A DNA stretch of 43,394 bases from Planctomycetota bacterium (lineage in GTDB: Bacteria > Planctomycetota > Planctomycetia > Pirellulales > Thermoguttaceae): positions 1 through 43,394 of the forward strand of contig DQVB01000391.1 in assembly GCA_015661985.1 (NCBI GenBank), read 5' to 3'. Shown here piece by piece: positions 465 to 29,359 of the stretch (positions within the stretch are counted from its first letter, which is position 1; every line of letters begins with the position of its first letter). Position numbers and translations under genes: made by a program. The notes beneath the pieces were generated by a model. The model saw nothing but the letters and a program-made list of their open reading frames with translations. It was not told where the DNA came from and did no database searches.

Positions 465-2276
465 TCAGCCCCCGGCCACCACGGCCAACGGATCGGGGGC
501 GGGGCGGCTTCCCCGCTCCACTGTGGGGACGACCACACTCTGGCAGGGCTCCAGGCCTTCGGCCTTCGGGACGGCTGTTCGCCAGGCCGCTTCGTTGGCT
601 TCGTAGAAGGTAGGGGGCTCGTAGGTCCAGCCGCTGGCCAGGCGCTTTGCTTCCCGCCGTGTCTTCCAGAGCACGTAAGGTCCCCCCAGGACCGCGGCGA
701 CCCGCGACTTCCAGCCGAAATGGCGGTGCAGCTCGCCGAGGATCTCCCGCATCTTGGCGTACATGCGAGGCTGGTGGCGATAGTAGCCTTTCATGGCGGC
801 CAGCACGGCGGAATAAGTGGTGTCCAACTCACGCGCCTCCCAGGCGAAACGGCGGCGGATACGCGCGTGCGGATGGTTCCGGTACCGCTTCCAACCGGCC
901 AGGGTGGTGCGCACGATCCGCGCCACACTGGGCCCGTTCACCTCGAAGTCGCGGCGGAACGCTCGCCGCAACAGCTCCGTCTCCGCGCCCTCCGGGATGT
1001 GGGGATGCCGGTAATTGAAAATGTATTGCCCGTGGATGTCCGCCACATGATACTCGTCTTCGCCCTTCATGCGGCCCTGGGCGGAAAGCTCCGCAAAAAG
1101 CGGCGTTCCCGGAATCGGCGTGTACAGCATGAACTGATGGAAGTCCGTGTCGTAGCGCACGGCGTAGTCGATTACCGCGTCGATGTTCTCCGGGGTGTGG
1201 TCTTCCAGGCCGATGATCGTGGAGCCCAACACCCGAATGCCATGCGACTGGAGCTGGCGCACCAGCTGGAACGTGTCCGTGCCGCGGAGCTTCGCATAGC
1301 GGCTGTCCTTGCCCTCCAGGCCCATCCAGACCCACGAGATACCCAGTCCCACCAGCTGCTCCATGGAATAGCGACGCAACACATTGGCTGAGCTGAATAC
1401 GTGCAGCGCCCATGCTTTGTCATGCGCCTCCATCAGCTCCAGCAGCCGCAGGGCGCGCTTGCGATGGAGCAGGAAGTTCTCGTCCATCACAAAGAACGAA
1501 CAGACCTGCATGGCCTCCTCCACCTGGCACATGATCTGGAAAAGCTCATCGCCCGTTTCGTAGAAGTCGATGAACTTGCCTTTCCCGCCGAACATCGCCG
1601 AGGTGGAGCAGAAGTTGCAGCCCATGGGGCAACCCACCGACGGAATAATCGTGGCCGCCACATCCCCAGGTCTCTCCCGCGCGGAGATCCCCATGTTTCG
1701 CGTACCGAAGGCCGAAAGGATCAGCGGATGACGGATGGGAGCGTCCTCGTCCTGGCCCAAGAACCGCCGGAACCACCGCACCCCCTCGCCCTTGACCACC
1801 CAATCCGCATCGACCCGCTGGTCCAGGTCGGGCACATTGGCGATGTGGCCGCCCACGACGATGGTGGCCTCCGGCTGATACTGCCGGACCAGTTGGCACA
1901 TCTTCCGCACTTTGAGGAGGTTGGGGATGATGCTGCTGATGCCGACCACGTCATAGGGACGGCTCCGGAGTTCCTGGACGAATCGCTCCAAGCTGGGGAA
2001 ATCCAAAACGGTGCACGGGGCATCCAGGTTGCACTGGATGAGCATCAATCCCCATGAACGATGGAACATGCGCACCGAAAAAGGGCCCTGCTCCCGGGTG
2101 ACCTGGTTGTGGTAGAGCTCCATCGGGTTCATCCGCCGACTACCGTACTGGTCGTCCTCGCCGTACGGACCAAAGACGCTGGCCAGTAATACGCGAGCCC
2201 GGGATCCCAACGGATGAGTCGCCTTGGGGGAATGGGCAGCGAACTGGATTCTGGTAGGTCGATCAAGGGCTGGCAT
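465..2276 (-). CDS. B12-binding domain radical SAM protein (class B radical SAM family)
   Basis: ORF 465..2765, trimmed to the internal ATG at 2276 (MPALDRPTRIQF). The first 163 codons are Arg/Pro-rich junk. It has a B12-binding-like Rossmann segment (YDVVGISSIIPN...IVVGGHIA) and the CxxxCxxC motif GCPMGCNFCST. Confidence 0.85.
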   Translation of the reverse strand: MPALDRPTRIQFAAHSPKATHPLGSRARVLLASVFGPYGEDDQYGSRRMNPMELYHNQVTREQGPFSVRMFHRSWGLMLIQCNLDAPCTVLDFPSLERFVQELRSRPYDVVGISSIIPNLLKVRKMCQLVRQYQPEATIVVGGHIANVPDLDQRVDADWVVKGEGVRWFRRFLGQDEDAPIRHPLILSAFGTRNMGISARERPGDVAATIIPSVGCPMGCNFCSTSAMFGGKGKFIDFYETGDELFQIMCQVEEAMQVCSFFVMDENFLLHRKRALRLLELMEAHDKAWALHVFSSANVLRRYSMEQLVGLGISWVWMGLEGKDSRYAKLRGTDTFQLVRQLQSHGIRVLGSTIIGLEDHTPENIDAVIDYAVRYDTDFHQFMLYTPIPGTPLFAELSAQGRMKGEDEYHVADIHGQYIFNYRHPHIPEGAETELLRRAFRRDFEVNGPSVARIVRTTLAGWKRYRNHPHARIRRRFAWEARELDTTYSAVLAAMKGYYRHQPRMYAKMREILGELHRHFGWKSRVAAVLGGPYVLWKTRREAKRLASGWTYEPPTFYEANEAAWRTAVPKAEGLEPCQSVVVPTVERGSRPAPDPLAVVAGG

Positions 2277-3018
2277 GTTCGGAATCCTCTCCAATGGGGT
2301 GCCGTCCCGCTTGCCGTAGGTGCGGCGTCTTCCACGCGGTCGGGGCGATCGGGCAATCATAGCCTCTATCGCCTCCCCACAGGTCAACGATACGTCTGCA
2401 TTGTGTAAAACCTTTGTAATAGCCGGCCTGAGTGCATCTTCAGCCGGCCATCCGCCCTGCCGCTGGCTGCCCCGGGCACGGCAGCCTGGGGGGGCACGCC
2501 TTGGCCCGGGCCCCGGCGTCTCTCGGCTTGCAAGTCTCCGGGGACCCGGAGACGGCGGCCAGGCCTTCGCGCATCGGCCACCACAGGGCGCAGACGCCCA
2601 TGGCTGGCGCGTAAACCGGAGGGACTCGCCCGACGAAAACCGATGCCGCCATCCCCAGAAGCGCACGCCCACCGAAGTTGCCCTCCGGCGCGGGGGCTCG
2701 TCTCCGCGCCGGGCTTTCGCCGGCAGCGGGACGGGCACGGACGGTTGACAACGGGCTCGGGGCACCGGTAGGGTCGAGGTGTATTCCCCGTCAATGCCGT
2801 CGCGAGACGCTTTCGCCCTGGGCCGATGAACAAGGTCAGCGAGTCTCGTGGGACAAGCGTCCCCGCTTCTCCCGGTTGCCCGGATTCGATCACCCAGACT
2901 GCCTCAACAGACGTATCCTCATGTTCCGGGCAAGCGAGGACGCTTACCCAACGACTCTTTCCTCAGCTCAGCTTTCGCCCTGTTTCCCGCTCCCTTTCCT
3001 CAACCAAGGAGACTGGCC

Positions 3019-3486
3019 ATGCCCGTCAAACGGCTCAAACAGTTTCTGGACAGCCACAACGTGAATTACATCAGCATCACTCATTCGCCGGCCATCACCG
3101 CCCAGGAGATCGCCGCCAGCGCCCATGTGCCTGGCAAGGAATTGGCCAAGACCGTGATGGTCAAAATCGATGGCAAGATGGCGATGGCGGTCCTGCCGGC
3201 GTCGTACAAAGTCGACTTTCAGCTCTTGCGGGAGGCAGCCGGAGCCGAACAGGTCGAATTGGCCGACGAGCGTGAATTCAAAGACATGTTCCCCGAATGC
3301 GAAGTGGGAGCCATGCCGCCCTTTGGGAACCTCTATGACATGGAAGTCTACGTGTCTCGCAGCCTGGCCGAGGATGAGCAGATCGCCTTCAACGCCGGGA
3401 GCCACACGGAGCTGATCCGGTTGGCCTACCAGGACTTCGAGCGGCTGGTGAAGCCCAAGGTCGTACGGTTGGCTGCGAAAGACTGA
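3019..3486 (+). CDS. YbaK/ProX-type aminoacyl-tRNA deacylase domain protein
   Basis: ATG at 3019 preceded by AAGGAG (3006-3011). The sequence [17 protein letters not shown]...[24 protein letters not shown]...[10 protein letters not shown] is typical of the YbaK family. Confidence 0.8.
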
Positions 3487-3529
3487 AATGGCTGCCCCCG
3501 CCGGCACGCCGCCCGGGTCGGGCTCTGGC

Positions 3530-4558
3530 TCAAGGCCGACCGCAGCGGGCTGCTCCGGCGGCCGCATCAAGGAAGGCCAGGATGTTTTCCAGCGGAACGT
3601 CGGCTTGGATCGTGATGGCTGGCTCCAGCAAATAGCCGCCGCCCCAGCCCATGGCTCGTTGCAGTCGCCGCACCTCCTGGCGGAGTTGTTCGGGGGTAGC
3701 TTGCACCAGCGTCTGCTGGGTGCCCAGTCCACCGAAGAAGGTCAAATGCCTGCCGAATTGGCGTTTCAATTCCAGGATGTCCATCGCCTCGGGCTGGATC
3801 GGGTGCAGGATGTCCAACCCCAGATCGACCAGGTCAGGCACGATGGCCCGCACGTTGCCGCAGGAGTGGAGCATCACGGCCTTGCCGCCCGCCTTGGCGC
3901 GGGCGATGATCCGGGCCAGCCGGGGCTTGATCAACTGGCGCCAGTCTCGGGGGCTGATGACCAAAGCTCGCTGGGTGCCGTAGTCGTCGCTCAACGCCAC
4001 GCCGTCGAAGGCAAACCGCTCCAGGAGGACTTCCAAGGTACCCAGCACGTATTGGGCGATCGCTTCCAACAGGTCTGCCACGAACGGCTTCTGGAGGGCC
4101 ACATAGGTGAGCAGCTGCTCCATACCACACATGAAAGAGGCCCGCTCCCAAAGGTCTCCGATCCAGAGGATTGTATACTGGGACGCGTTTCGGCAGCACC
4201 ATGGGCCCAGCTCGGCAAAACGGTACGGCGCGGAGGGATCGGGAAAGCGGTAGCCCTTCAGCGTAGGAGCGTTCAGGCACGGCCCCACAGGGCTGCCGCG
4301 GTCGATCGGGCTGGTGGCCCATACCACCCCGAATTCGTCCACCGCCCGCGGCCCGAACTGTTGCGGGTGGGCATAGAGGGGTTTGATGCTCCGCGGCCCG
4401 GCCATGCGGATGGGCAAGTCCAGAAACGCCTCGACCTCCTCAGTCCCGTAGTACACCTCCAACGATCGTCGGGGCTGCGGGGAAAGCGGCAGGTGGTACG
4501 GGACGGGCAGCCCGTCCTGGTGATCCAATACCCGCTGGACCCATTCCTTGTTGGACAC
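3530..4558 (-). CDS. uroporphyrinogen decarboxylase (URO-D) family protein, MtaA/CmuA-like
   Basis: ORF 3530..4690. I prefer the GTG at 4558 (GGGAG lies 7 nt upstream); an alternative ATG is at 4648. URO-D-like C-terminal half: DDYGTQRALVISP...VMLHSCGNV...LDILHPIQPEAMD. Confidence 0.75.
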   Translation of the reverse strand: MSNKEWVQRVLDHQDGLPVPYHLPLSPQPRRSLEVYYGTEEVEAFLDLPIRMAGPRSIKPLYAHPQQFGPRAVDEFGVVWATSPIDRGSPVGPCLNAPTLKGYRFPDPSAPYRFAELGPWCCRNASQYTILWIGDLWERASFMCGMEQLLTYVALQKPFVADLLEAIAQYVLGTLEVLLERFAFDGVALSDDYGTQRALVISPRDWRQLIKPRLARIIARAKAGGKAVMLHSCGNVRAIVPDLVDLGLDILHPIQPEAMDILELKRQFGRHLTFFGGLGTQQTLVQATPEQLRQEVRRLQRAMGWGGGYLLEPAITIQADVPLENILAFLDAAAGAARCGRP

Positions 4559-19543: not shown

Positions 19544-20476
19544 TCACGGTACGGATTGGAGAGCCAGGCTAACCAGGTCGTCCAACCGGGCTTCGGCCAC
19601 GCCGATGCAGGTGTCGGCGGCGCCGTAGTAAAGTTTCAAGGTGCCGTCCGGGTCGAGTACATGCCCGCAGGGGAAGACCACGTTGGGCACGTCGCCGGTC
19701 CGTTCGTAGACCTCTTCCGGCCCGAAGATGAAGTGGGGTGTGAAACCGAGGACACGCGAGGGATCGTCGCGATCGAGCATCATGGCCCCCAGCCGGTAGA
19801 GCCGGCCACTGGCGGTGATGCGCACACCGTGGTAGATGACCAGCCAGCCTTGAGGCGTCGGGACGGGCGGGGTGCAGGCCCCGAGTTTCGATTGGCCCCA
19901 ACCGGCCTGTGGGCTGAGCAACACCCGTGCGCGGCCCCAGTATACCAGGTCGGGCGAATAGGTGATCCAGATCGAGGCAGGCCGCTCATCCATGCCGCCG
20001 GGACGGTCAATCATGACGTAGTTGCCATGGATCTTTTCCGGAAACAGCACCGCGTCTTTGTTGTCCACTTCGGTCGCCAGGCAAAGCCGCTCGAAGCGCC
20101 GGAAATCGCGCGTGCGCCCGATGGCCACACGGGGGCCGTGCGGCCCATAAGCCGTGTAGGTGATGTAGTAATCCTGGCCGATCTGCGTGATCCGCGGGTC
20201 TTCGATCCCGTATTGTTCGAAGGGCGCGAAACCGGGGTCCTGGCTCGGCAGGATCCACGGCTCGGGCTCAACCTGGAAGTGGTAGCCATCCTCGGAGAAG
20301 GCCAGCGTCAGATGGCTGAGCCCATCGAGGCCCTCGACGCGCAACACCAGCACGTACCGGTCCTGGAAGCGACAGGCGGCCGCATTGAAGACCGTGTTGC
20401 ACTGGTATGGGATGTGGCTGGCCGTCAGAATGGGATTTCCGGGGTGGCGGCGGAAGGGGATGTACGGCTTGGGCAT
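19544..20476 (-). CDS. glycoside hydrolase family 130 protein (mannoside phosphorylase-like)
   Basis: ATG at 20476 preceded by AAGGTGA. MPKPYIPFRRHPGNPIL...FNAAA...GIEDPRIT...DNKDAVLFPE...YYGAAD is typical of the GH130 beta-propeller. Confidence 0.85.
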   Translation of the reverse strand: MPKPYIPFRRHPGNPILTASHIPYQCNTVFNAAACRFQDRYVLVLRVEGLDGLSHLTLAFSEDGYHFQVEPEPWILPSQDPGFAPFEQYGIEDPRITQIGQDYYITYTAYGPHGPRVAIGRTRDFRRFERLCLATEVDNKDAVLFPEKIHGNYVMIDRPGGMDERPASIWITYSPDLVYWGRARVLLSPQAGWGQSKLGACTPPVPTPQGWLVIYHGVRITASGRLYRLGAMMLDRDDPSRVLGFTPHFIFGPEEVYERTGDVPNVVFPCGHVLDPDGTLKLYYGAADTCIGVAEARLDDLVSLALQSVP

Positions 20477-21708
20477 GCACTCACCTTGGTCTCTATGGGC
20501 AGGTCTTCCCGGGCGATCGACCCGGCATCGGGCGCAGGTGCCCGGCCGGCTCCGGCCGGGGCCAGATCCCCTTCCGGTTCCGGGAAGTAGACGTATCGGC
20601 CCTTGCCGTAGGGCACCTGGACCACTTGATGATAAACGCTCACGTGTTTGCGGGCGATATGGCTCCAGCCTGCACGCTCGCGCACGTACCGGGCCATGTT
20701 CTCCTGGAGACGGCACCTCCGCTGGGGGTCGTTCAAGACTGTCAGGATGGCCTCCACAAACTCCTCGTCCGTGCGGCAGACGATCCCCCCGCCGCTCCGT
20801 TGGATCAAGAGCTGGAAGGCGGGCAGCGCCGAGACCACCGCGGGTCGGCGCAGGGCGAAGCATTGGGCCAGCATCCCGCTCTGGGAGCCCTTCTCGTAGG
20901 GCAGTACGATGCAGTCGGCTGCCGACAGGATCGTGTCAAACGTGTGTTGGGGAAACTGGCCCCGGAGGAACACGATCTGATCCACGACGGGGGACTGGTT
21001 CAGCTGGGTGAACAGCTGGCGCTGATAGTCCTGGGCCTCGATCCCCCGCACCTTGCCGGCCACCACCAGCACCGCATCGGGGTCGCGGCGGCAGATTTCG
21101 GGGAAGAAGTTGAGCACGCGATGGAATCCCTTGCTGGGTCGGAAATAGCCGCAGATCATGACCACCTTCTTGCCTTCCAGGTCCAGCTTGCGCTTGGCGT
21201 CCGGCACCGGTTCAATTTCGCGGATGCCGTGTTCGATCACATGGATCTTCTCGCCGTGGCCGAAATACTGGACCAGTGTCTCCTTCTGGAAAGGCTCGTG
21301 GACGATCACTGCGTCACTTTCGGCCAACACGTTGCGGAGGATGATCCTCTCGTCGCGAGCCGGTTCCGGGTAGACGGTGTGCAGCGTGGTGACCACAGGG
21401 ATGCCGGCCAGCCGGTAGCGGAGGATCAACTCCAGGATGGCTACACTCTTCTGGGACCCGTACAGGGCGAACTCATGCTGGATGTGCATCACGTCGGGCG
21501 TCATCCGCGTGCTGGTGTAGAAGATGTCGGCCGCCAGCGTGGGAGAGTCCGGCTGGTAGACGGGAAAGATCCCCTGGCCCTGCGCCCCGAATTGGCTCAT
21601 CACGAATGTCTCGTTGTCGAGCTTCCGGAGCGCGCGATTCAGGGCTTCGGTATAGGTGCCCACACCGCACTCAATGGGTGGATAACTGGATACGAAGCCG
21701 ATTCGCAT
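20425..21708 (-). CDS. glycosyltransferase family 4
   Basis: ATG at 21708 preceded by GGAGGAG. MRIGFVSSYPPIECGVGTYT followed by a GT-B fold body. The last 52 nt overlap the GH130 start. Confidence 0.88.
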   Translation of the reverse strand: MRIGFVSSYPPIECGVGTYTEALNRALRKLDNETFVMSQFGAQGQGIFPVYQPDSPTLAADIFYTSTRMTPDVMHIQHEFALYGSQKSVAILELILRYRLAGIPVVTTLHTVYPEPARDERIILRNVLAESDAVIVHEPFQKETLVQYFGHGEKIHVIEHGIREIEPVPDAKRKLDLEGKKVVMICGYFRPSKGFHRVLNFFPEICRRDPDAVLVVAGKVRGIEAQDYQRQLFTQLNQSPVVDQIVFLRGQFPQHTFDTILSAADCIVLPYEKGSQSGMLAQCFALRRPAVVSALPAFQLLIQRSGGGIVCRTDEEFVEAILTVLNDPQRRCRLQENMARYVRERAGWSHIARKHVSVYHQVVQVPYGKGRYVYFPEPEGDLAPAGAGRAPAPDAGSIAREDLPIETKVSACPSRTSPSAATPEIPF

Positions 21709-21948
21709 GGCAGCTCCTCCCTGAAGGTCAGGACCCCCGGGCAGCACGGCAGGCCGCCCCTTGTGCCCGGCGGGACGAATGACCAATCACTGGACCGCCA
21801 GCCGGTTCCGCACGTCCGTCGCTGCTCCCAACCCCGCTGCTGGCCGCTCCGACCGACTGGGCGACCCTCCCTGCGGACAACGAAAAAGGCCGCGGGCCCG
21901 TGGGACCGGGGTCCCGCAGCCTCACATGGCAGGAGAAGAGGTCCCGTC

Positions 21949-21970
21949 AAAAGGCGGAAGCAGTTCCGCC
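21949..21970 (-). terminator. intrinsic terminator after the first hsp20
   Basis: Reverse strand: GGCGGAA-CTGC-TTCCGCC followed by TTTTG, about 20 nt after the stop at 21991. Confidence 0.65.
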
Positions 21971-21990
21971 GCCGGTTGTCACGTGCCTCG

Positions 21991-22509
21991 TCAGGCACCC
22001 TTCACTTCGATCCGCTTGCCGCGCGCTGCTTCGGCTTTGGGCAGTCGGACTTCCAACACGCCACTGTGGTACCGGGCTTCGATCTCGTCCTGGTTCACGC
22101 CGTGCGGCAGCGTGAAGGAACGACAGAAGGAGCCGTACCGGTAACGGGCCCGGTGTTTCTCCTCCTTCTCCTCGCGACGCTGGGCACGCACGGTCAACAC
22201 GTTCCCGCTCACCTTGATGTCGAAGTCCTCCGGCTCAAACCCTGGCAGCTCGGCCTGGAACACATACTCGTCCTCGCGGTCCTCCAGATCCATATCCCAG
22301 GCCCAAGGCATCCTTTCGAAATCCTCCCACAGGCGGAGGCTGGGCCAGTCGCTCCACAGGCTCCGTCCGAAGAACCGATCCATCAGCGAATCGATCTCCT
22401 CGCGGAGCCGAGCCAGCGGAAGGAAGTCGTAGTCGTCGTCCCGACGAGGAACGTCGTGACGAACCCGGATGTTGCCGTTCCTCTTCTTCCAAGGAATCAA
22501 GCTCAACAT
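21991..22509 (-). CDS. Hsp20/alpha-crystallin small heat-shock protein (copy 1)
   Basis: ATG at 22509 lies 9 nt after AGGAGG. Alpha-crystallin domain DLEDREDEYVFQAELPGFEPEDFDIKVSGNVLTVRA...GVLEVRLPK. Confidence 0.92.
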   Translation of the reverse strand: MLSLIPWKKRNGNIRVRHDVPRRDDDYDFLPLARLREEIDSLMDRFFGRSLWSDWPSLRLWEDFERMPWAWDMDLEDREDEYVFQAELPGFEPEDFDIKVSGNVLTVRAQRREEKEEKHRARYRYGSFCRSFTLPHGVNQDEIEARYHSGVLEVRLPKAEAARGKRIEVKGA

Positions 22510-22706
22510 CGTCACCACCTCCTTTCCGTTCGTCCCAGCCCGGGCCGGATGGCCCGAGAGCTCGTTGTTGTGTCCTCACAAAACCCGCACAAAGATCGGT
22601 TGCCCTCTCGTCTTCCGCGGAGCCCTTCGCCCGCCCGGCGGATCACCCAGGCAGGCTGCCCCCCGCGGTCGGACATGTCGCTTACGGCCGTCTGTTGACG
22701 CCCCCC

Positions 22707-22747
22707 GGGCCTTCCGGCCGTCTCTTCGGCCACGTCCCGGAAGGCCC
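22707..22747 (-). terminator. terminator-like hairpin after the second hsp20
   Basis: Perfect 11-bp stem GGGCCTTCCGG/CCGGAAGGCCC starting 10 nt after the stop at 22757. There is no U-tract. Confidence 0.5.
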
Positions 22748-22756
22748 AGAACTGCC

Positions 22757-23155
22757 TCACGAGGTCTTCACCTCGATGCGACGGGGCTTGACCTCCTCGG
22801 CCTTGGGCAAGTGCAGCGTCAACTCGCCGTTTTTCAACTCCGCCGAGATCTTTTGAGCATCGATCGATTCACCGATCGTAAAGCTGCGGTAGAAATCACC
22901 GATGCCGTACTCGGCGTAAAGGAAATCAACGTCGTCGTGCCGCGGGCGGACCTTGCCGTGGATGGTCAGCTCCCGATCCTCGAAACGGATGTCCAGGTCC
23001 TCAGGGGCTACACCCGGCAAGTCGCCGTAGAGCACCAGTTCTTCATCGGTTTCGGCGATGTCGAACCGCGGGCTGTAGGTGACGCCGCTGCGAGTGCGTT
23101 CTGCGGTGGTTACCTCCGCGGGCCGTTCTTCTTTCTTGGTCAGTGCATCAGCCAT
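22757..23155 (-). CDS. Hsp20/alpha-crystallin small heat-shock protein (copy 2)
   Basis: ATG at 23155 preceded by AAGGAGG. FDIAETDEELVLYGDLPGVAPEDLDIRFEDRELTIHG...GELTLHLPK. Confidence 0.92.
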   Translation of the reverse strand: MADALTKKEERPAEVTTAERTRSGVTYSPRFDIAETDEELVLYGDLPGVAPEDLDIRFEDRELTIHGKVRPRHDDVDFLYAEYGIGDFYRSFTIGESIDAQKISAELKNGELTLHLPKAEEVKPRRIEVKTS

Positions 23156-23219
23156 GGTCTGGTCCTCCTTTCTTGCGGTTGGCTTGGAATCCGAGAGGAT
23201 CAAGGCCGTGCCGAGGGGC

Positions 23220-23235
23220 GCCGCCGGAAGGCGGC
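23220..23235 (-). terminator. hairpin after the third hsp20
   Basis: GCCGCC-GGAA-GGCGGC stem-loop 20 nt after the stop at 23255. There is no U-tract. Confidence 0.4.
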
Positions 23236-23254
23236 AAACCCCGGGCCATCCGCC

Positions 23255-23704
23255 TCAGCCGGTCTTGACCTCGATCTTCCGAGGCTTGGCCTCCTCACGC
23301 TTGGGCAGGGTGATCGTCAACACGCCGTGCTTCAACTCGGCAGTCACCTTGTCCGCGTCCACCGGGTGCGGAAGCTCGACCAACCGGCTGAAGCTGCCGT
23401 AGCCGCGTTCCTGACGATGCCACGTGCCTCCCTGCAGCTCCGGCTGCCTCCGCTCGCCCTTCAGCGACAGCTGATTCTCACCGGTCACGGTGATCTCCAG
23501 CTCGCTGAGCTCAAAGCCGGGCAACTCCGCCTCCACGTACAGGTTGTCCTCGTCCTCCCACAGGTTCAGCGGCGGGTAGGTTGCCCGAGCCAGCAGCCGG
23601 CCGCCGTCCCAGCCAAACCGGCTGAACAGCCGATCCATCTCCTCCCGGAGTCGGTTCATTTCCGCCATCATGCTCCCAAACGGTTGCCAACGAGTCGTCA
23701 ACAT
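23255..23704 (-). CDS. Hsp20/alpha-crystallin small heat-shock protein (copy 3)
   Basis: ATG at 23704 preceded by AGGAGG. NLWEDEDNLYVEAELPGFELSELEITVTGENQLSLKG...GVLTITLPK. Confidence 0.92.
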   Translation of the reverse strand: MLTTRWQPFGSMMAEMNRLREEMDRLFSRFGWDGGRLLARATYPPLNLWEDEDNLYVEAELPGFELSELEITVTGENQLSLKGERRQPELQGGTWHRQERGYGSFSRLVELPHPVDADKVTAELKHGVLTITLPKREEAKPRKIEVKTG

Positions 23705-23816
23705 GTTCCCACCTCCTTTCGCCACGAAACCAGGTTCGTGAAACGAGCGTCACTGTCCAGGTTGACCGTCGGCCGACCGCCGGTTTTGACAGCCAGCCGT
23801 TTCGTCTGTCCCCGTG

Positions 23817-23832
23817 AGCAACAAGCGTGCCA
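23817..23832 (-). promoter_or_regulatory. sigma-54 promoter upstream of hsp20 copy 3
   Basis: The reverse strand reads AATTGGCACGCTTGTTGCTCAC, which matches the YTGGCACG-N4-TTGCW consensus with exact spacing. The GC element is 114 nt upstream of the ATG at 23704. Confidence 0.6.
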
Positions 23833-23984
23833 ATTGCCCCGGGGGCTGGCGCGGCTGTTTTTGGCCCCAAAAACCGGCTTGCGGACCGCCCGCACCAGGA
23901 TCCAACGCCAAACTGGCCGGCCAGATTGCCCCGGGCAAAAAAGACAATCTGACGTTGCCCCTCGCCGCCGTCCCGAACGAACCG

Positions 23985-24061
23985 TACCGAAGACGGTATG
24001 GTTCTTCCCCGTGTCGAGCTCTTCCCGGGCCCAGCGCGGAAATGCCCAGCCGTGCGCCGTA
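23985..24061. repeat. 77-nt dispersed repeat, copy A
   Basis: Ungapped match to 35000..35076 with 63 of 77 identities. In the core 24011-24048 it is 34 of 38, and all four differences are C/T transitions. Confidence 0.75.
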
Positions 24062-24253
24062 TAGATACGCCGTATGGATATGGGTAGAAAGCCGTGAACT
24101 GTGCTCATATGCCACCAAAGGAGTGGAAGGTGAAGCCAGTCGGGTGGGCCAAGGTCGATCGACCCAGCGACAACCATCTCCCAGCCGGAAGGGGCGGCGA
24201 CGTGTCGATCTGGCCGACCAATGATCCGATGATCGGCCGCAGGTCGGTGGCGG

Positions 24254-24282
24254 TTGACACGGGCGTCTGGGGGGCGTATTTT
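24254..24282 (+). promoter_or_regulatory. sigma-70-type promoter for the cimA leader (TTGACA-N17-TATTTT)
   Basis: TTGACA at 24254-24259, a 17-nt spacer, then TATTTT at 24277-24282. It is an AT-rich island in GC-rich DNA, about 50 nt upstream of the leader ORF. Confidence 0.5.
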
Positions 24283-24331
24283 TTTTTGTGATCGTGGCTG
24301 TGTTGCCCACGTATGTAGTGGAAGTCGTCCG

Positions 24332-24433
24332 ATGGTTCGTCATGTCCGCCCCATCATGATCCGCCTACTGGCCGGCGTGATATCCGCCATTGGGTGGGTT
24401 ATGGTGATTATTATCGGCCCTTGGGGGGCTTGA
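24332..24433 (+). CDS. Ile/Val-rich leader peptide (33 aa) of a candidate cimA attenuator
   Basis: ATG at 24332 lies 7 nt after GGAAG; there is an internal ATG at 24356. The peptide is MVRHVRPIMIRLLAGVISAIGWVMVIIIGPWGA, with 7 Ile and 5 Val. It is below the ORF-track length cut-off. Confidence 0.55.
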   Translation: MVRHVRPIMIRLLAGVISAIGWVMVIIIGPWGA

Positions 24434-24472
24434 GGGCGGCGAGCGGTCGGCGGCAAACCGGTGAAGACGCGA

Positions 24473-24509
24473 GCCCTGAGGCCCCTGGGGTCTCGAGGGC
24501 GTTTTTTTT
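24473..24509 (+). terminator. intrinsic terminator (attenuator) between the leader ORF and cimA
   Basis: GCCCUGAGGCCC-CUG-GGGUCUCGAGGGC forms 12 bp with one bulge, followed by U8 (24502-24509). It ends 40 nt before the cimA ATG. Confidence 0.7.
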
Positions 24510-24548
24510 GCCTCTGGTTTGAGAATCGGGGTTGGAGCTGAGGGAGCG

Positions 24549-26147
24549 ATGCGCCGGATCGAGGTCTACGACACGACGCTGCGGGACGGGGCGCAGGCCG
24601 AAGGGATCAGCTTTTCTCTGCAGGACAAGCTCCTGTTGACCCGCCGCCTGGACAGCCTGGGGTTCGACTACGTCGAAGGTGGTTACCCGGCGTCGAACGA
24701 AAAGGATTGGGAGTACTTTCAGCGGGTTGGCGAACTGCCGCTGGAGCACGCCACGGTTTGTGCCTTCGGCATGACGCGGCGCAAGGACACCGCGGTCGAG
24801 GAGGACAAAGGGCTCAGGCGGCTCCTGGATTCGGGGGCCGAAGTGATCACGCTGGTGGGCAAGTCTTCGGCCTTCCAGGTCACGGCGGTCCTGGAGACAT
24901 CGCTGGAGGAGAACCTGGCCATGGTCGGCGACAGTGTCCGGCTGCTGCGCCAGTCGGGGCGGGCGGTGATCTTTGACGCCGAGCATTTCTTCGACGGTTG
25001 GAAGGCCGACGCCGGCTACGCCATGGCTGTGCTGGAGCGGGCGATCGAGGCGGGGGCGCGGATGGTGGTGCTCTGCGACACCAACGGTGGCAGTATGACT
25101 GAGCAGATCGGTTCGATTTGCCGGCAGGTGGTGGAGCGAGTCTCCGTGCCGGTGGGCATCCACTGCCACAACGACTGCGACCTGGCCGTGGCCAACACGC
25201 TGGCTGCGGTCGACGCCGGTGTGGTGCAGGTCCAGGGCACGGTGAACGGCTTCGGCGAGCGGTGCGGGAACGCCGATTTGATTTCGGTCATCGCCAACTT
25301 GGCAATCAAGAAGCGAGGGTACGAAGTGCTCCAGCCGGACAGCGTCCGTTCGCTGACCGAGCTGTCGCGCTACGTCTACGAAATGGTGAACATGAACTTC
25401 CGGCCCCATCAGCCGTTCGTGGGCAAAAGCGCCTTTGCCCACAAGGGCGGGATGCACGTCAGCGGCGTGCACCGTACCACCCGGAGCTATGAGCACATCG
25501 ATCCCCAGATGGTGGGCAACGAGCGCCGGGTGTTGTTGAGCGAATTGTCCGGGCGGTCGAACATCCTGGCGCTGACCAGCCGCTTGGCCATCCCCAAGGA
25601 TTCGGACCTGATGGACCGCATCCTGGCCAAGGTGGTGGCCATGGAGGCGGCCGGCTACCAGTTTGAAGCGGCCGAGGGGTCCTTCGACCTCTTGGTGCGG
25701 AAGTGCTCCGGCACGTACCGGGCCCATTTCCAGCCCCTGCATTACCATGTGAACGTGGACAACAAGGCGGGAGGCGAAGTGACGGCCGAGGCCATGGTGA
25801 AGATCCGCATTGGGGATGAGGTGCGATTCGAGGCGGCCGAGGGGCACGGGCCGGTGGATGCCTTGGACGCGGCGCTGCGTAAAGCGCTGAACGGCCGCTT
25901 TGAGGCCTTGAACCGTTTGCACTTGGTGGACTATAAAGTGCGCGTGATCAATTCAGAGGCAGCGACGGCGGCTTGGGTCCGCGTGGTGATCGAGAGCCAG
26001 GACGAGGACGACGTGTGGGGCACGGTGGGGGTGAGCGAGAACATCATCGAAGCCAGCTGGAATGCGCTGGTGGAGAGCTACGAGTACAAGTTGCACAAGG
26101 ACGAAGACATCTGTCCCGTGGCCGGTGGCCCGGCGGCTGCCGGGTGA
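24549..26147 (+). CDS. cimA: (R)-citramalate synthase (LeuA/CimA family, CimA-type)
   Basis: ATG at 24549 after GAGGGAG. MRRIEVYDTTLRDGAQAEGISFSLQDK...HCHNDCDLAVANTLAAV, plus a C-terminal LeuA-dimer regulatory domain. The overall pattern looks like the bacterial citramalate synthase subfamily rather than canonical LeuA. Confidence 0.8.
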   Translation: MRRIEVYDTTLRDGAQAEGISFSLQDKLLLTRRLDSLGFDYVEGGYPASNEKDWEYFQRVGELPLEHATVCAFGMTRRKDTAVEEDKGLRRLLDSGAEVITLVGKSSAFQVTAVLETSLEENLAMVGDSVRLLRQSGRAVIFDAEHFFDGWKADAGYAMAVLERAIEAGARMVVLCDTNGGSMTEQIGSICRQVVERVSVPVGIHCHNDCDLAVANTLAAVDAGVVQVQGTVNGFGERCGNADLISVIANLAIKKRGYEVLQPDSVRSLTELSRYVYEMVNMNFRPHQPFVGKSAFAHKGGMHVSGVHRTTRSYEHIDPQMVGNERRVLLSELSGRSNILALTSRLAIPKDSDLMDRILAKVVAMEAAGYQFEAAEGSFDLLVRKCSGTYRAHFQPLHYHVNVDNKAGGEVTAEAMVKIRIGDEVRFEAAEGHGPVDALDAALRKALNGRFEALNRLHLVDYKVRVINSEAATAAWVRVVIESQDEDDVWGTVGVSENIIEASWNALVESYEYKLHKDEDICPVAGGPAAAG

Positions 26148-26290: not shown

Positions 26291-29200
26291 ATGAGCGGCG
26301 CAGCAACCTCCCAGGATCTGCCCAAACAGTACGACCACGCTGCCGCCCAGAATCGCTGGTACCGGTTCTGGGAGGAGCAGGGGTACTTCCACAGCGAGCC
26401 CAACCCGGAGCGTGAGCCCTATACGATCGTCATTCCCCCGCCCAATGTGACCGGTGCCCTGCATCTGGGACACGCCCTGAATAACACGCTCCAGGACATT
26501 CTCATCCGTCAGAAGCGGATGCAAGGGTTCGAGACGCTTTGGGTGCCGGGCACCGACCATGCGGGCATCGCCACCCAGGCGGTGGTGGAACGACGCCTGT
26601 TGACCGAAGAGCAAAAGACCCGGCACGACGTGGGCCGCGAAGGGCTCATCGAGCGGATCTGGAAGTGGAAGCACGAATACGAAGGGCGGATCTTGAGTCA
26701 ATTGAAGCAGATGGGCTGCAGCTGCGACTGGCAGCGAACCCGCTTCACGCTCGACCCCGTCTGCGCCCGCGCCGTGCGTCACACGTTCTTCCGCCTGTTC
26801 CAGCAAGGGTTGATCTATCGCGGCAAACGCCTGGTCAACTGGGATACCTTCCTGCAGACGGCCGTCAGTGACGACGAGGTGTTCCACGAAACGGTGCCCG
26901 GGCATTTCTGGTACTTCCACTACCCGGTTATCGATCCCAAGCCGGGCGAGCCATCCTTGGTGACCATCGCCACCACGCGTCCGGAGACGATGCTGGGGGA
27001 CACCGCCGTGGCCGTGCATCCCTTCCCGGCGACGGCCTTGGAGCGGGCCATCGAGGAGCTGGAAGGGCGCATCGCTTCGGCGCCGTCCAAGATGCGGCCC
27101 GCGTTGGAGGCCGAGCTGGAAGAGCTCCGCCGGCGCCAACGGGCCCTGCTGCCGGAACTGATCCGGCTGCGCGACATGGCCTCCGATGGTCGCCAGGTGA
27201 TGCTGCCTCTGTTGAACCGCCCCATCCCGCTCATCGCCGACGATTGGGCCAAGCCCGAGCTAGGGACCGGTTGCGTGAAGATCACCCCGGCCCACGACCC
27301 GAACGACTACGAGGTGGGTCTGCGCCACCAGCTGCCCATGATCAACATCCTCAACCCCGACGGGACGCTCAACGAAAACGCGGGGCCCTATCGGGGCCAG
27401 ACGGTCATGGAGGCCCGCCAGCACGTGGTGGAGGATATGGAACGTCAAGGGCTGCTGGTGAAGGCGGAGGAGCGGGAGATCGAATTGGCGCATTCCGACC
27501 GTTCCAAGACGCCCATCGAGCCGCTGCTGACTGACCAGTGGTTCATCAAGATGGATCAGCTGGCCCAACTGGCCATGGACGCTGTGACCGACGGCCGTGT
27601 GAAGATCATCCCGCCGCGGTACGCCAAGGCGTATCTGGATTGGCTCAGCGAGAAGCGGGATTGGCCCATCAGCCGCCAGCTCTGGTGGGGCCACCAGATC
27701 CCGATCTGGTATTGCCGCACCGCCTCCCGCCAAGAGATCGAAGCGGCCTTCGCCGGGCGTCAAGACGTGGCGTGGCGGCGCGACGAATCGTCCGGCCAGT
27801 GGCTCATCTGCGCCCAAGAGGAAGATCTCCCGGAAGATGCCGTCCCCGGCCACCGACTGGTCCGCGAACAGGACGTGCTGGATACCTGGTTCAGCTCCGC
27901 CCTCTGGCCCCACTCCACCTTGGGTTGGCCCGAGCAGACCGCTGAGCTGCAGTACTACTATCCCACCAGTACCCTGATCACCAGCCGCGACATTATCACG
28001 CTGTGGGTGGCCCGCATGGTGCTGACCGGGCTTTTCAACGTGGGCGACGTCCCGTTCCGCGAAGTCTATATCCACCCGAAGATACTCGACGGCTACGGCG
28101 AAGGGATGTCCAAGTCCAAAGGCAACGGGGTCGATCCGCTGGACGTTATGGAGAAGTTCGGGGCCGATTCCCTCCGCTTCGGCCTGGCCTACCTGACCAC
28201 CGAAACGCAGGATATCCGCATGCCCGTCGATTTCGAATGCCCGCACTGCGGCGCGCTGGTGCCACAGACGCGGGCAAACCGTGTGTTGCCCCGGGTCCGC
28301 TGCGGGCAGTGCCGGCAGCATTTCGCCACCCAATGGGCGGAAAAGCCCCAGGACCGGGCGCTGCCGCGAGGCCCCGTGGTCAGCGACCGCTTTGAGGTGG
28401 CCCGCAACTTCTGCAACAAGCTGTGGAACGCCTCGCGCTTCGCTCTGCTGAACCTCGAGGGCTATACGCCCGGTCCAGTGGCCGATGCCGAACTGGAAGT
28501 GGAGGACTGCTGGATCCTCAGCCGGCTGGCCACGGTGACCCGCCAGGTGACCGAGGCGCTGGACGGTTACCGGTTTGCCGACGCTGCGCGCACTTTGTAC
28601 GCGTTCTCATGGGACGAGTTCTGCAGCTTCTACGTGGAGATGCTCAAACCGCGGCTTCAACACCCGGCGCGCCGGCCCCCGGCCCAACGACTGCTGGCCC
28701 ACACGCTGGACAACCTGCTGCGCCTGCTGCACCCGATCATCCCCTTCCTCACCGAGGACGTCTGGCAGCGGTTGGCCCGATCGGCCCCGCAGCGGGGCCT
28801 GCCGGAACCGCAACCGGCCGCCGAAAGCATCATGATCGCCCCCTGGCCGACCAGCGATACCCGCCGCGAGGACGCGGCCATCGAAGCCCGGTTCGCCTCT
28901 TTCCAACAGGTGCTGCGGGCGGTGCGGGAGATCCGCAGCCGCCAGAACCTGGCCCCTCAGCGGACCATCCGGTTCTCGGTGCGCTGCCCGGCCGCCGTGG
29001 CCGACCAGCTCCGGCCCATGGAGCCCTACTTCCGCTCCATGGCCAAGGCCGAGGCCGTCGGCTGGGGCCCCGACGTCCAGCCGCCCGCCTGGGCCGCCAC
29101 GGCCACGGCAGCCGATATGGAGGTCTTCGTCGACCTGGCCGGCTTGATGGACAAACAGGCGGAAATCCGCCGCAAACAAAAAGAGCTGGAAAAGCTGGAT

Positions 29201-29359
29201 ACCCTGATCAGCTCGAAACAAAAAAAACTGGCCAACGAACGGTTCCTGCAAAGGGCCCCGCGAGCCGTGGTAGAGCGTGAGCGGCAAAGCCTGCAGACGC
29301 TTCAACACCAGCGCAGCCTGATGGCGGAAACCCTGCGGCGGTTACAAGGAAGTGCTTGA
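26291..29359 (+). CDS. valS: valine--tRNA ligase
   Basis: ATG at 26291. HIGH-type motif PPPNVTGALHLGHA, KMSKS-type motif GMSKSKGN, the CP1 editing domain and a C-terminal coiled coil. Confidence 0.95.
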   Translation: MSGAATSQDLPKQYDHAAAQNRWYRFWEEQGYFHSEPNPEREPYTIVIPPPNVTGALHLGHALNNTLQDILIRQKRMQGFETLWVPGTDHAGIATQAVVERRLLTEEQKTRHDVGREGLIERIWKWKHEYEGRILSQLKQMGCSCDWQRTRFTLDPVCARAVRHTFFRLFQQGLIYRGKRLVNWDTFLQTAVSDDEVFHETVPGHFWYFHYPVIDPKPGEPSLVTIATTRPETMLGDTAVAVHPFPATALERAIEELEGRIASAPSKMRPALEAELEELRRRQRALLPELIRLRDMASDGRQVMLPLLNRPIPLIADDWAKPELGTGCVKITPAHDPNDYEVGLRHQLPMINILNPDGTLNENAGPYRGQTVMEARQHVVEDMERQGLLVKAEEREIELAHSDRSKTPIEPLLTDQWFIKMDQLAQLAMDAVTDGRVKIIPPRYAKAYLDWLSEKRDWPISRQLWWGHQIPIWYCRTASRQEIEAAFAGRQDVAWRRDESSGQWLICAQEEDLPEDAVPGHRLVREQDVLDTWFSSALWPHSTLGWPEQTAELQYYYPTSTLITSRDIITLWVARMVLTGLFNVGDVPFREVYIHPKILDGYGEGMSKSKGNGVDPLDVMEKFGADSLRFGLAYLTTETQDIRMPVDFECPHCGALVPQTRANRVLPRVRCGQCRQHFATQWAEKPQDRALPRGPVVSDRFEVARNFCNKLWNASRFALLNLEGYTPGPVADAELEVEDCWILSRLATVTRQVTEALDGYRFADAARTLYAFSWDEFCSFYVEMLKPRLQHPARRPPAQRLLAHTLDNLLRLLHPIIPFLTEDVWQRLARSAPQRGLPEPQPAAESIMIAPWPTSDTRREDAAIEARFASFQQVLRAVREIRSRQNLAPQRTIRFSVRCPAAVADQLRPMEPYFRSMAKAEAVGWGPDVQPPAWAATATAADMEVFVDLAGLMDKQAEIRRKQKELEKLDTLISSKQKKLANERFLQRAPRAVVERERQSLQTLQHQRSLMAETLRRLQGSA

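Follow-up and report, generated by a model that had tools for sequence, protein, structure and literature searches.

A conserved candidate leader-peptide attenuator upstream of the citramalate synthase gene cimA in Pirellulales planctomycetes

The 43,394-nucleotide stretch of Planctomycetota DNA considered here (contig DQVB01000391.1, positions 1 to 43,394; hereafter the window) contains, upstream of the citramalate synthase gene cimA, an element that is probably a ribosome-mediated (leader-peptide) transcription attenuator. We put at about 0.8 the probability that it senses charged tRNA-Ile, and possibly tRNA-Val, and controls read-through into cimA and probably into the following valine-tRNA ligase gene, valS. 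The element and the gene that it precedes are composed as follows, where ORF denotes an open reading frame and nt nucleotides.

24254..24282, + strand: predicted promoter, with -35 TTGACA (24254-24259), a 17-nt spacer and -10 TATTTT (24277-24282); seen in the sequence and conserved in homologs
24320..24324, + strand: Shine-Dalgarno-like GGAAG, 7 nt before the leader ATG; seen in the sequence
24332..24433, + strand: leader ORF of 33 codons plus TGA, encoding MVRHVRPIMIRLLAGVISAIGWVMVIIIGPWGA, with 7 Ile and 5 Val
24398..24415, + strand: putative regulatory codons GTT ATG GTG ATT ATT ATC (Val-Met-Val-Ile-Ile-Ile)
24424..24441, + strand: antiterminator 5′ strand, comprising the last leader codons, the TGA stop (24431-24433) and GGGCGGCG
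24447..24464, + strand: small spacer hairpin within the antiterminator loop
24468..24486, + strand: shared strand, acting as 3′ strand of the antiterminator or as 5′ arm of the terminator; core GCCCUGAGGCCCC at 24473-24485
24473..24509, + strand: predicted intrinsic terminator, with a 12-bp hairpin (24473-24500; one bulged G) and U8 (24502-24509); about -22 kcal/mol
24535-24546, + strand: cimA ribosome-binding site, GGAG/GAGGGAG
24549..26147, + strand: cimA, citramalate synthase, the putative regulated gene; TIGR00977, 643 bits (cutoff 450)

A first-pass annotation had proposed that all parts of a leader-peptide attenuator are present here in order, and examination of the sequence from 23900 to 24800 finds each of them where it had been placed, with two small corrections. 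The codon run at 24398-24415 begins with GTT and not GTG, the remainder (ATG GTG ATT ATT ATC) being as described, and the cimA ribosome-binding site and start codon do follow the terminator, with the ATG at 24549. The extent of the leader ORF and its Ile and Val content, the 12-bp hairpin with its bulged G and U8 tract, and the identity of the downstream gene (well above the TIGR00977 cutoff) all stand. CimA catalyzes the entry step of the threonine-independent (pyruvate-derived) isoleucine route, and an isoleucine sensor therefore fits the gene that it precedes.

Conservation of the element and its codon signal

A tblastn-confirmed scan with one genome per species gave 80 cimA loci (L001-L080), all from Pirellulales-type planctomycetes and with CimA identities of 62-76%. 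Seventy-seven of these have a full-length upstream region and are testable for the layout of the element, and leader-based counts refer to 53 homologous leaders unless another number is given. In 52 of the 77 upstream regions there is an ORF of 20-72 codons whose final part contains an Ile/Val run, and its stop codon is followed at a distance of 50-80 nt (mostly 57-64 nt) by a T-run. This layout is absent from the reverse complements (0 of 77) and is seen in 10 of 1309 random segments of the same loci (0.8%). The aligned 3′ halves (alignment A1) have the consensus GTN GTG ATT ATT ATT nnG GAG Gnn CGG CCn TAA GGGC, followed by a 23-34 nt spacer, AGCCCUGAGGCC, a loop, GGCCUCAGGG and U6-9.

Alignment A1 was used to build a covariance model (R1), which identifies the element in about 62 of the 80 loci, some of them outside the training set, always upstream of cimA and once per locus; its single match in the 43-kb window is at 24401-24509 (52 bits). 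The Ile-rich mini-ORF, the terminator and an antiterminator straddling the leader stop are kept in these Pirellulales loci, and the conservation in relatives on which the first-pass annotation had staked its proposal is thus found. One carrier, Bremerella cremea JCM 17758 (L047), is in culture. To learn whether the element also precedes other genes, metagenomes were scanned for its pattern. Of the 80 loci returned, 77 are chance matches and two are further instances of the element, both upstream of cimA; among these returned loci the element was not found upstream of another branched-chain amino-acid gene. Genes upstream of the element are not conserved across the 80 cimA loci, indicating that the element belongs to cimA, and on the same ground we rejected the terminator as the end of an upstream gene.

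The promoter, TTGACA-N17-TATTTT, is the only sigma-70-like match in the 20-30 kb interval of the window and lies 49 nt upstream of the leader ORF, and from its position we infer a transcription start near 24289-24292, about 40 nt before that ORF. The first-pass assignment of this promoter is borne out in the relatives, where 44 of the 53 leaders have TTGAC-N17-TAnnnT at 26-49 nt before their ATG, compared with 2% of background segments. We also note a weak 6-bp hairpin with a T9 run at 24263-24287, which overlaps the promoter spacer and -10 and might double as a terminator for the upstream gene.

The homologous leader ORFs have a median length of 31 codons (53 loci; range 20-72), and their last 12 codons are rich in Ile (24%, compared with 4.6% in the adjacent cimA genes) and Val (18% and 9.7%) and depleted in Leu (1.7% and 8.5%), an amino-acid bias that is partly circular and to that extent counts against our reading because the ORFs were picked by their Ile/Val content. 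This selection has no bearing on the preference for ATT, on the spacing of the T-run or on the matches of the covariance model. ATT accounts for 83% of the Ile codons in the leader tails and 20% of those in cimA, and it is present as an in-frame ATT-ATT pair in 43 of the 53 leaders; the cimA and valS genes of the window together have 6 ATT and 60 ATC Ile codons. Use of rare codons is typical of attenuator leaders. The window element thus has a short, translatable ORF between promoter and structural gene, presumably translated in the cell, and within it a cluster of codons (ATT ATT ATC) for the amino acid of the regulated pathway, as attenuators of this class do.

Toward the N-terminus there is a further semi-conserved feature, an N-P-I/N motif (AAY CCG ATA/AAT) at codons 6-10 in 22 of the 53 leaders (L002, L008, L009, L010, L014, L022 and others). 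Inspection gave no convincing RNA partner for its CCGAUA sequence, and we note that ATA, the rarest Ile codon, is enriched in the leaders. The motif and the hydrophobicity of the peptide are what would be expected if the mini-ORF encoded a functional small hydrophobic peptide and the hairpin and U-run served as a terminator or insulator, constitutive or partial, without sensing amino acids. However, leader length (20-72 codons) and N-terminal sequence vary, no peptide family matches, and the selection is on codon choice (ATT) rather than residue identity. Moreover, the C-terminal tail is kept at the nucleotide level across reading frames (CGG CCG TAA in some leaders, GGG GCC TAG in others). 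We regard this explanation as the least probable of those considered here, with very little chance of being correct.

Alternative pairings and the position of the ribosome

As the first-pass annotation had noted, the segment at 24425-24437 (GGGGCUUGAGGGC) can form 12 of 13 base pairs with 24473-24485 (GCCCUGAGGCCCC). One of the 12 is a G-U pair. An equivalent duplex is found in 52 of the 53 loci with a mean energy of -17.6 kcal/mol (mean z of -2.5 relative to dinucleotide shuffles), and CCCUGAGGCC within the shared strand is nearly invariant. Native strand pairs are more stable than locus-swapped ones (-17.6 and -16.1 kcal/mol), with none of 5000 permutations reaching the observed mean. In an alignment not fitted to the antiterminator helix (A3), 77.9% of antiterminator cells pair, a figure that falls to 54-56% on shifting the partner strand by a single column. 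Both sides have changed in 40 cells (26.6 ± 4.1 expected), and one pair (columns 27-88) is CG in 21 sequences and GC in 13. By these measures the two antiterminator strands co-vary. The spacer between the strands (23-34 nt) contains a hairpin that is weak and variably present in homologs (mean -4 kcal/mol).

The terminator is conserved between leader and structural gene and is recovered by RNAalifold from the homolog alignment. In an alignment of 62 sequences fitted to the terminator, 97.7% of cells are paired and six of nine pairs have compensatory changes, values that none of 500 shuffles reach; the mean energy in homologs is -19.4 kcal/mol. A simple terminator scan missed the window hairpin because of its bulge. 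Both helices thus carry compensatory changes, and the two mutually exclusive structures required of an attenuator are present, with the caveat for the antiterminator that RNAalifold fails to predict it (see below); the alternative pairings first proposed for the window alone appear to be real.

The placement of these strands relative to the leader codons is also conserved. Counted from the first nucleotide of the final Ile codon, base pairing of the 5′ strand begins at a median distance of 13 nt (interquartile range 13-16), and this distance is still 11-16 nt in loci with an earlier stop codon. The 5′ strand itself spans a median of -5 to +5 around the leader stop, and in 81% of loci it lies inside the footprint of a terminating ribosome. 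A ribosome covers about 12 nt downstream of its A site (PMC4833913). The antiterminator 5′ strand would therefore start at the 3′ edge of a ribosome stalled on the last Ile codon.

We propose that transcription would start about 40 nt upstream of the 33-codon leader ORF and that the outcome would depend on the leading ribosome. With Ile-tRNA plentiful, the ribosome would reach the TGA at 24431 and cover the antiterminator 5′ strand (24424-24441), so that the shared strand (24473-24485) would pair with 24488-24500 and RNA polymerase would terminate at U8. With Ile-tRNA scarce, the ribosome would stall at ATT ATT ATC (24407-24415) with its 3′ edge just before 24424, and the free 5′ strand would capture the newly made shared strand; no terminator would then form, and cimA, together with valS, would be transcribed.

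Folding of the RNA in these states agrees with the scheme. The segment 24290-24515 has a fold z-score of -3.4. When folding is limited to the RNA downstream of a ribosome stalled at either ATT 24407 or ATT 24410, the window forms the antiterminator (-38.9 kcal/mol, compared with -32.1 kcal/mol for the terminator state), and with the ribosome at the stop codon it forms the terminator. In a co-transcriptional snapshot of the homologs, folded before the terminator 3′ arm exists, the antiterminator forms in 51 of the 53 with a stalled ribosome, in 7 with a ribosome at the stop codon and in 38 with no ribosome. In these folds a stalled ribosome would leave the antiterminator strand exposed and one at the stop codon would cover it, and the logic originally put forward is supported by both the distances and the state-specific folds.

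Several observations weigh against this interpretation, in addition to the circularity of the amino-acid enrichment. About 13-15 of the 80 loci have no recognizable element. The GGAAG Shine-Dalgarno sequence of the first-pass annotation is present at 24320-24324 but is not conserved in the homologous leaders. An antiterminator count restricted to ten pairs in a single register, without the two outer pairs, gives covariation no higher than shuffles, and it becomes significant when the outer pairs are added. RNAalifold on a MAFFT alignment predicts no pairs for the antiterminator state, because the strand occurs in three registers (e.g. GGCCG-UAA-GGGC and GGGGCC-UAG-GGC). When the whole window leader is folded at equilibrium with ribosome masks, the terminator forms whichever state is imposed, since upstream RNA could then base-pair past the ribosome, and these folds were replaced by the downstream-RNA-only and co-transcriptional folds described above. 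The terminator is also the minimum-free-energy structure in 35-43 of the 53 homologs even when the 5′ strand is free, from which it follows that the switch must be kinetic and dependent on co-transcriptional folding. Finally, there is no conserved hairpin between the first two segments of the leader (the 1:2 hairpin of classical attenuators), and the antiterminator fold of 38 of the 53 untranslated homolog leaders means that an untranslated leader would read through in most homologs.

The last of these points bears on a classical four-segment arrangement, in which termination under Ile-replete conditions would depend on a 1:2 anti-antiterminator or pause hairpin of the 5′ leader and not on the ribosome at the stop codon. 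Naked RNA of the window does pair 24335-24351 with 24434-24444 and 24352-24367 with 24391-24406, sequestering the antiterminator 5′ strand, and the segment involved is listed here.

24335..24351, + strand: window-specific partner that would sequester 24434-24444 in untranslated RNA, a possible 1:2-like anti-antiterminator; seen in the window fold, not conserved

However, such pairings easily arise by chance at 63% GC, a hairpin over the regulatory codons of the classical trp type is seen only in the window fold, and the untranslated homologs mostly adopt the antiterminator instead. We consider the four-segment arrangement improbable. With no 1:2 hairpin in the family, the terminating ribosome appears to be the anti-antiterminator.

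A stop-codon-centred attenuator could be elaborated further. In 28 of the 53 leaders (L002, L009, L026, L032 and others) there is a Shine-Dalgarno-like GGAG/GAGG at -13/-12 from the leader stop, compared with a background of 3% in the upstream part of leaders; 17 of the 53 have a full GGAGG there, and the internal GGAG/GAGG motif is absent from the window leader. Twenty-seven of the 53 leaders end in Pro-stop. We speculate that the spacing of GGAGG would let the anti-Shine-Dalgarno sequence hold the ribosome with its A site on the stop codon, and that Pro-stop might do likewise. More broadly, and as a tentative view that we would not yet back at even odds, the family may represent a minimal design in which a terminating ribosome, maybe held by Pro-stop and an internal GGAGG 9-13 nt upstream of the stop, is the sole anti-antiterminator with no 1:2 hairpin. 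This design would tie both CimA and the non-cognate valyl-tRNA synthetase (ValRS) to the charging of Ile- and Val-tRNA, and would imply tight coupling of transcription and translation in Pirellulales.

Two mutually exclusive hairpins with a conserved spacer could also form the expression platform of a riboswitch, and we therefore considered a switch set by a ligand or protein (a riboswitch or protein-dependent antiterminator) with the ORF being incidental. The space for an aptamer is limited to the 23-34 nt of weakly structured spacer, and Rfam gives no match in the whole window (gathering threshold), in 24000-24700 (E <= 10) or to the element in 30 homologous loci; on this evidence, identity as a T-box or riboswitch was rejected. 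A ligand or protein switch also leaves unexplained the in-frame rare ATT-ATT, the stop codon inside the 5′ strand and the constant 13-nt distance from Ile codon to strand, and is in our view very improbable.

Downstream genes and the putative amino-acid signal

The gene downstream of cimA in the window has the following coordinates.

26291..29359, + strand: valS, valine-tRNA ligase; the reading frame is open from GTG 26246, with ATG 26291 as its likely start

In 67 of the 80 loci the next gene after cimA, read in the same direction, is valS; the gap between them has a median length of about 80 nt and in most cases contains no T-run. The arrangement suggests that cimA and valS are probably one operon, co-transcribed and both under the attenuator, and control of valS may explain why Val codons accompany Ile in the leader. 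These loci thus share a conserved pairing of an isoleucine-pathway gene with a valine-tRNA ligase gene.

The frequency of valS and the Val content of the leader tails noted above raise the question of which signal matters most. Stalls at Val codons, or indeed any slowing of translation, could be as important as those at Ile, and the main target could be valS and not cimA; in a leader that lacks a 1:2 hairpin, read-through should follow from a stall anywhere upstream of the 5′ strand. However, the Val enrichment is modest and inflated by the ORF selection, the positional and rare-codon signals are specific to Ile, and co-transcription of valS is only inferred. A dual or general sensor is a possibility that we hold to be rather unlikely, and we favour an attenuator centred on isoleucine.

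Several other features of the surroundings of the element were noted. Neither of the two long ORFs upstream of it on the + strand of the window (763 and 531 amino acids; 20407-24064) matches a Pfam or NCBIfam family, and neither has a relative in any of the 80 loci. In a Lacipirellulaceae metagenome-assembled genome (L053, region 1643-4001) a 746-amino-acid membrane/TPR ORF (1753-3993) is located between the attenuator (1643-1741) and cimA. Two of the loci contain recognizable RNAs of other types: L013 has a group II intron domain (L013:3512-3592; RF00029, 54.9 bits) that precedes the leader by about 300 nt, and L075 has a TPP riboswitch (L075:389-488).

Relationship to known attenuators and implications

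The first-pass annotation had noted a resemblance of the leader peptide to E. coli IlvL. At E <= 10, neither the window peptide nor three of the four homolog peptides compared with Pfam and NCBIfam match any family, and the fourth has only chance matches (CcmD_alt and MgtS). No peptide matches the hidden Markov models of the IlvL and IvbL families, which we take to be Pfam IlvGEDA_leader and IlvB_leader. The consensus of the homolog peptides ends in ...IIIREVRP*, and homology to IlvL was rejected; the VIIIGP..GA likeness is convergent. With regard to novelty, searches of Rfam and the literature found no RNA or peptide regulator described for cimA, and full-text literature searches turned up no described cimA leader peptide or planctomycete attenuator, although a prior prediction may exist in the attenuator survey of Lopatovskaya et al. 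2010. The view that attenuation is undescribed for a Planctomycetota-like genome or for cimA therefore holds across the Rfam, Pfam, NCBIfam and literature searches. The element appears to represent a real and conserved family of leader-peptide attenuators with an ordinary, textbook mechanism, in which it is the family, the phylum and the target gene that are apparently new.

The closest parallels in design are the E. coli ilvGMEDA (IlvL) and ilvBN (IvbL) attenuators. In these, too, a leader ORF of about 32 codons lies close to the promoter and carries runs of branched-chain codons, the antiterminator overlaps the terminator, and branched-chain amino-acid biosynthesis is under control. Their antiterminator strand is hidden by a ribosome that has reached the stop codon, as proposed here. 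The cimA element differs in having no sequence relationship to them (no Pfam, NCBIfam or Rfam match) and no conserved 1:2 hairpin, in being Ile-centred and Leu-depleted where the E. coli leaders are multivalent for Leu, Val and Ile, and in its targets (cimA and valS) and Planctomycetota host.

The statement that leader-peptide attenuation is known mainly from Proteobacteria and some Actinobacteria proved too narrow, as there are Firmicutes examples (PMC5864092, PMC5794164). The Listeria monocytogenes Rli60 of the ilv-leu operon (PMC5864092) and the leucine-rich leader of Staphylococcus aureus ilvD (PMC5794164) are experimentally supported ribosome-mediated attenuators, each combining a short leader peptide with alternative terminator and antiterminator structures. 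Both resemble the cimA element as attenuators of branched-chain amino-acid operons outside Proteobacteria, but differ from it in organisms, sequences and targets. Rli60 has a 13-amino-acid leader and a four-segment structure layered with CodY control, whereas the cimA element has 31-33 codons and a stop codon inside the antiterminator strand.

Two other systems share the classes of genes controlled. The E. coli pheST attenuator, with leader pheM, is a leader-peptide attenuator upstream of an aminoacyl-tRNA synthetase operon, and a synthetase gene is similarly downstream of the cimA element, where valS is probably co-transcribed. In pheST the leader codons match the synthetase's own amino acid, whereas the cimA element has mainly Ile codons, a ValRS and a biosynthetic gene in first position. 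The T-box leaders of Firmicutes (ileS, valS and branched-chain genes) also sense tRNA charging, choose between terminator and antiterminator and precede the same gene classes, and in some Deltaproteobacteria they are found upstream of leuA/cimA-like genes as well. The cimA element has no T-box match, is far too short, and would sense charging via a translating ribosome and not by direct tRNA binding.

One further leader was a chance find of the pattern scan. In an unrelated AT-rich metagenome contig (L093:1465-1600) a 27-codon ORF (MIIPGLSSLYNYYWWYYIRDGGPGIMV) with tandem TGG TGG codons is followed by a hairpin and T7 terminator just upstream of trpE-trpG, and looks like a Trp leader-peptide attenuator.

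The findings extend leader-peptide attenuation to the Planctomycetota (order Pirellulales) and to cimA, predict a cimA-valS regulatory unit, and provide a covariance model and about 62 instances ready for use in annotation. Coupling of transcription and translation has been questioned in Planctomycetota owing to their internal membranes. The mechanism proposed here needs a ribosome close behind RNA polymerase, and its conservation is thus indirect evidence that the two processes are coupled in these bacteria. The attenuator would be a simple reporter for such coupling, and the cultured carrier B. cremea makes such experiments feasible.

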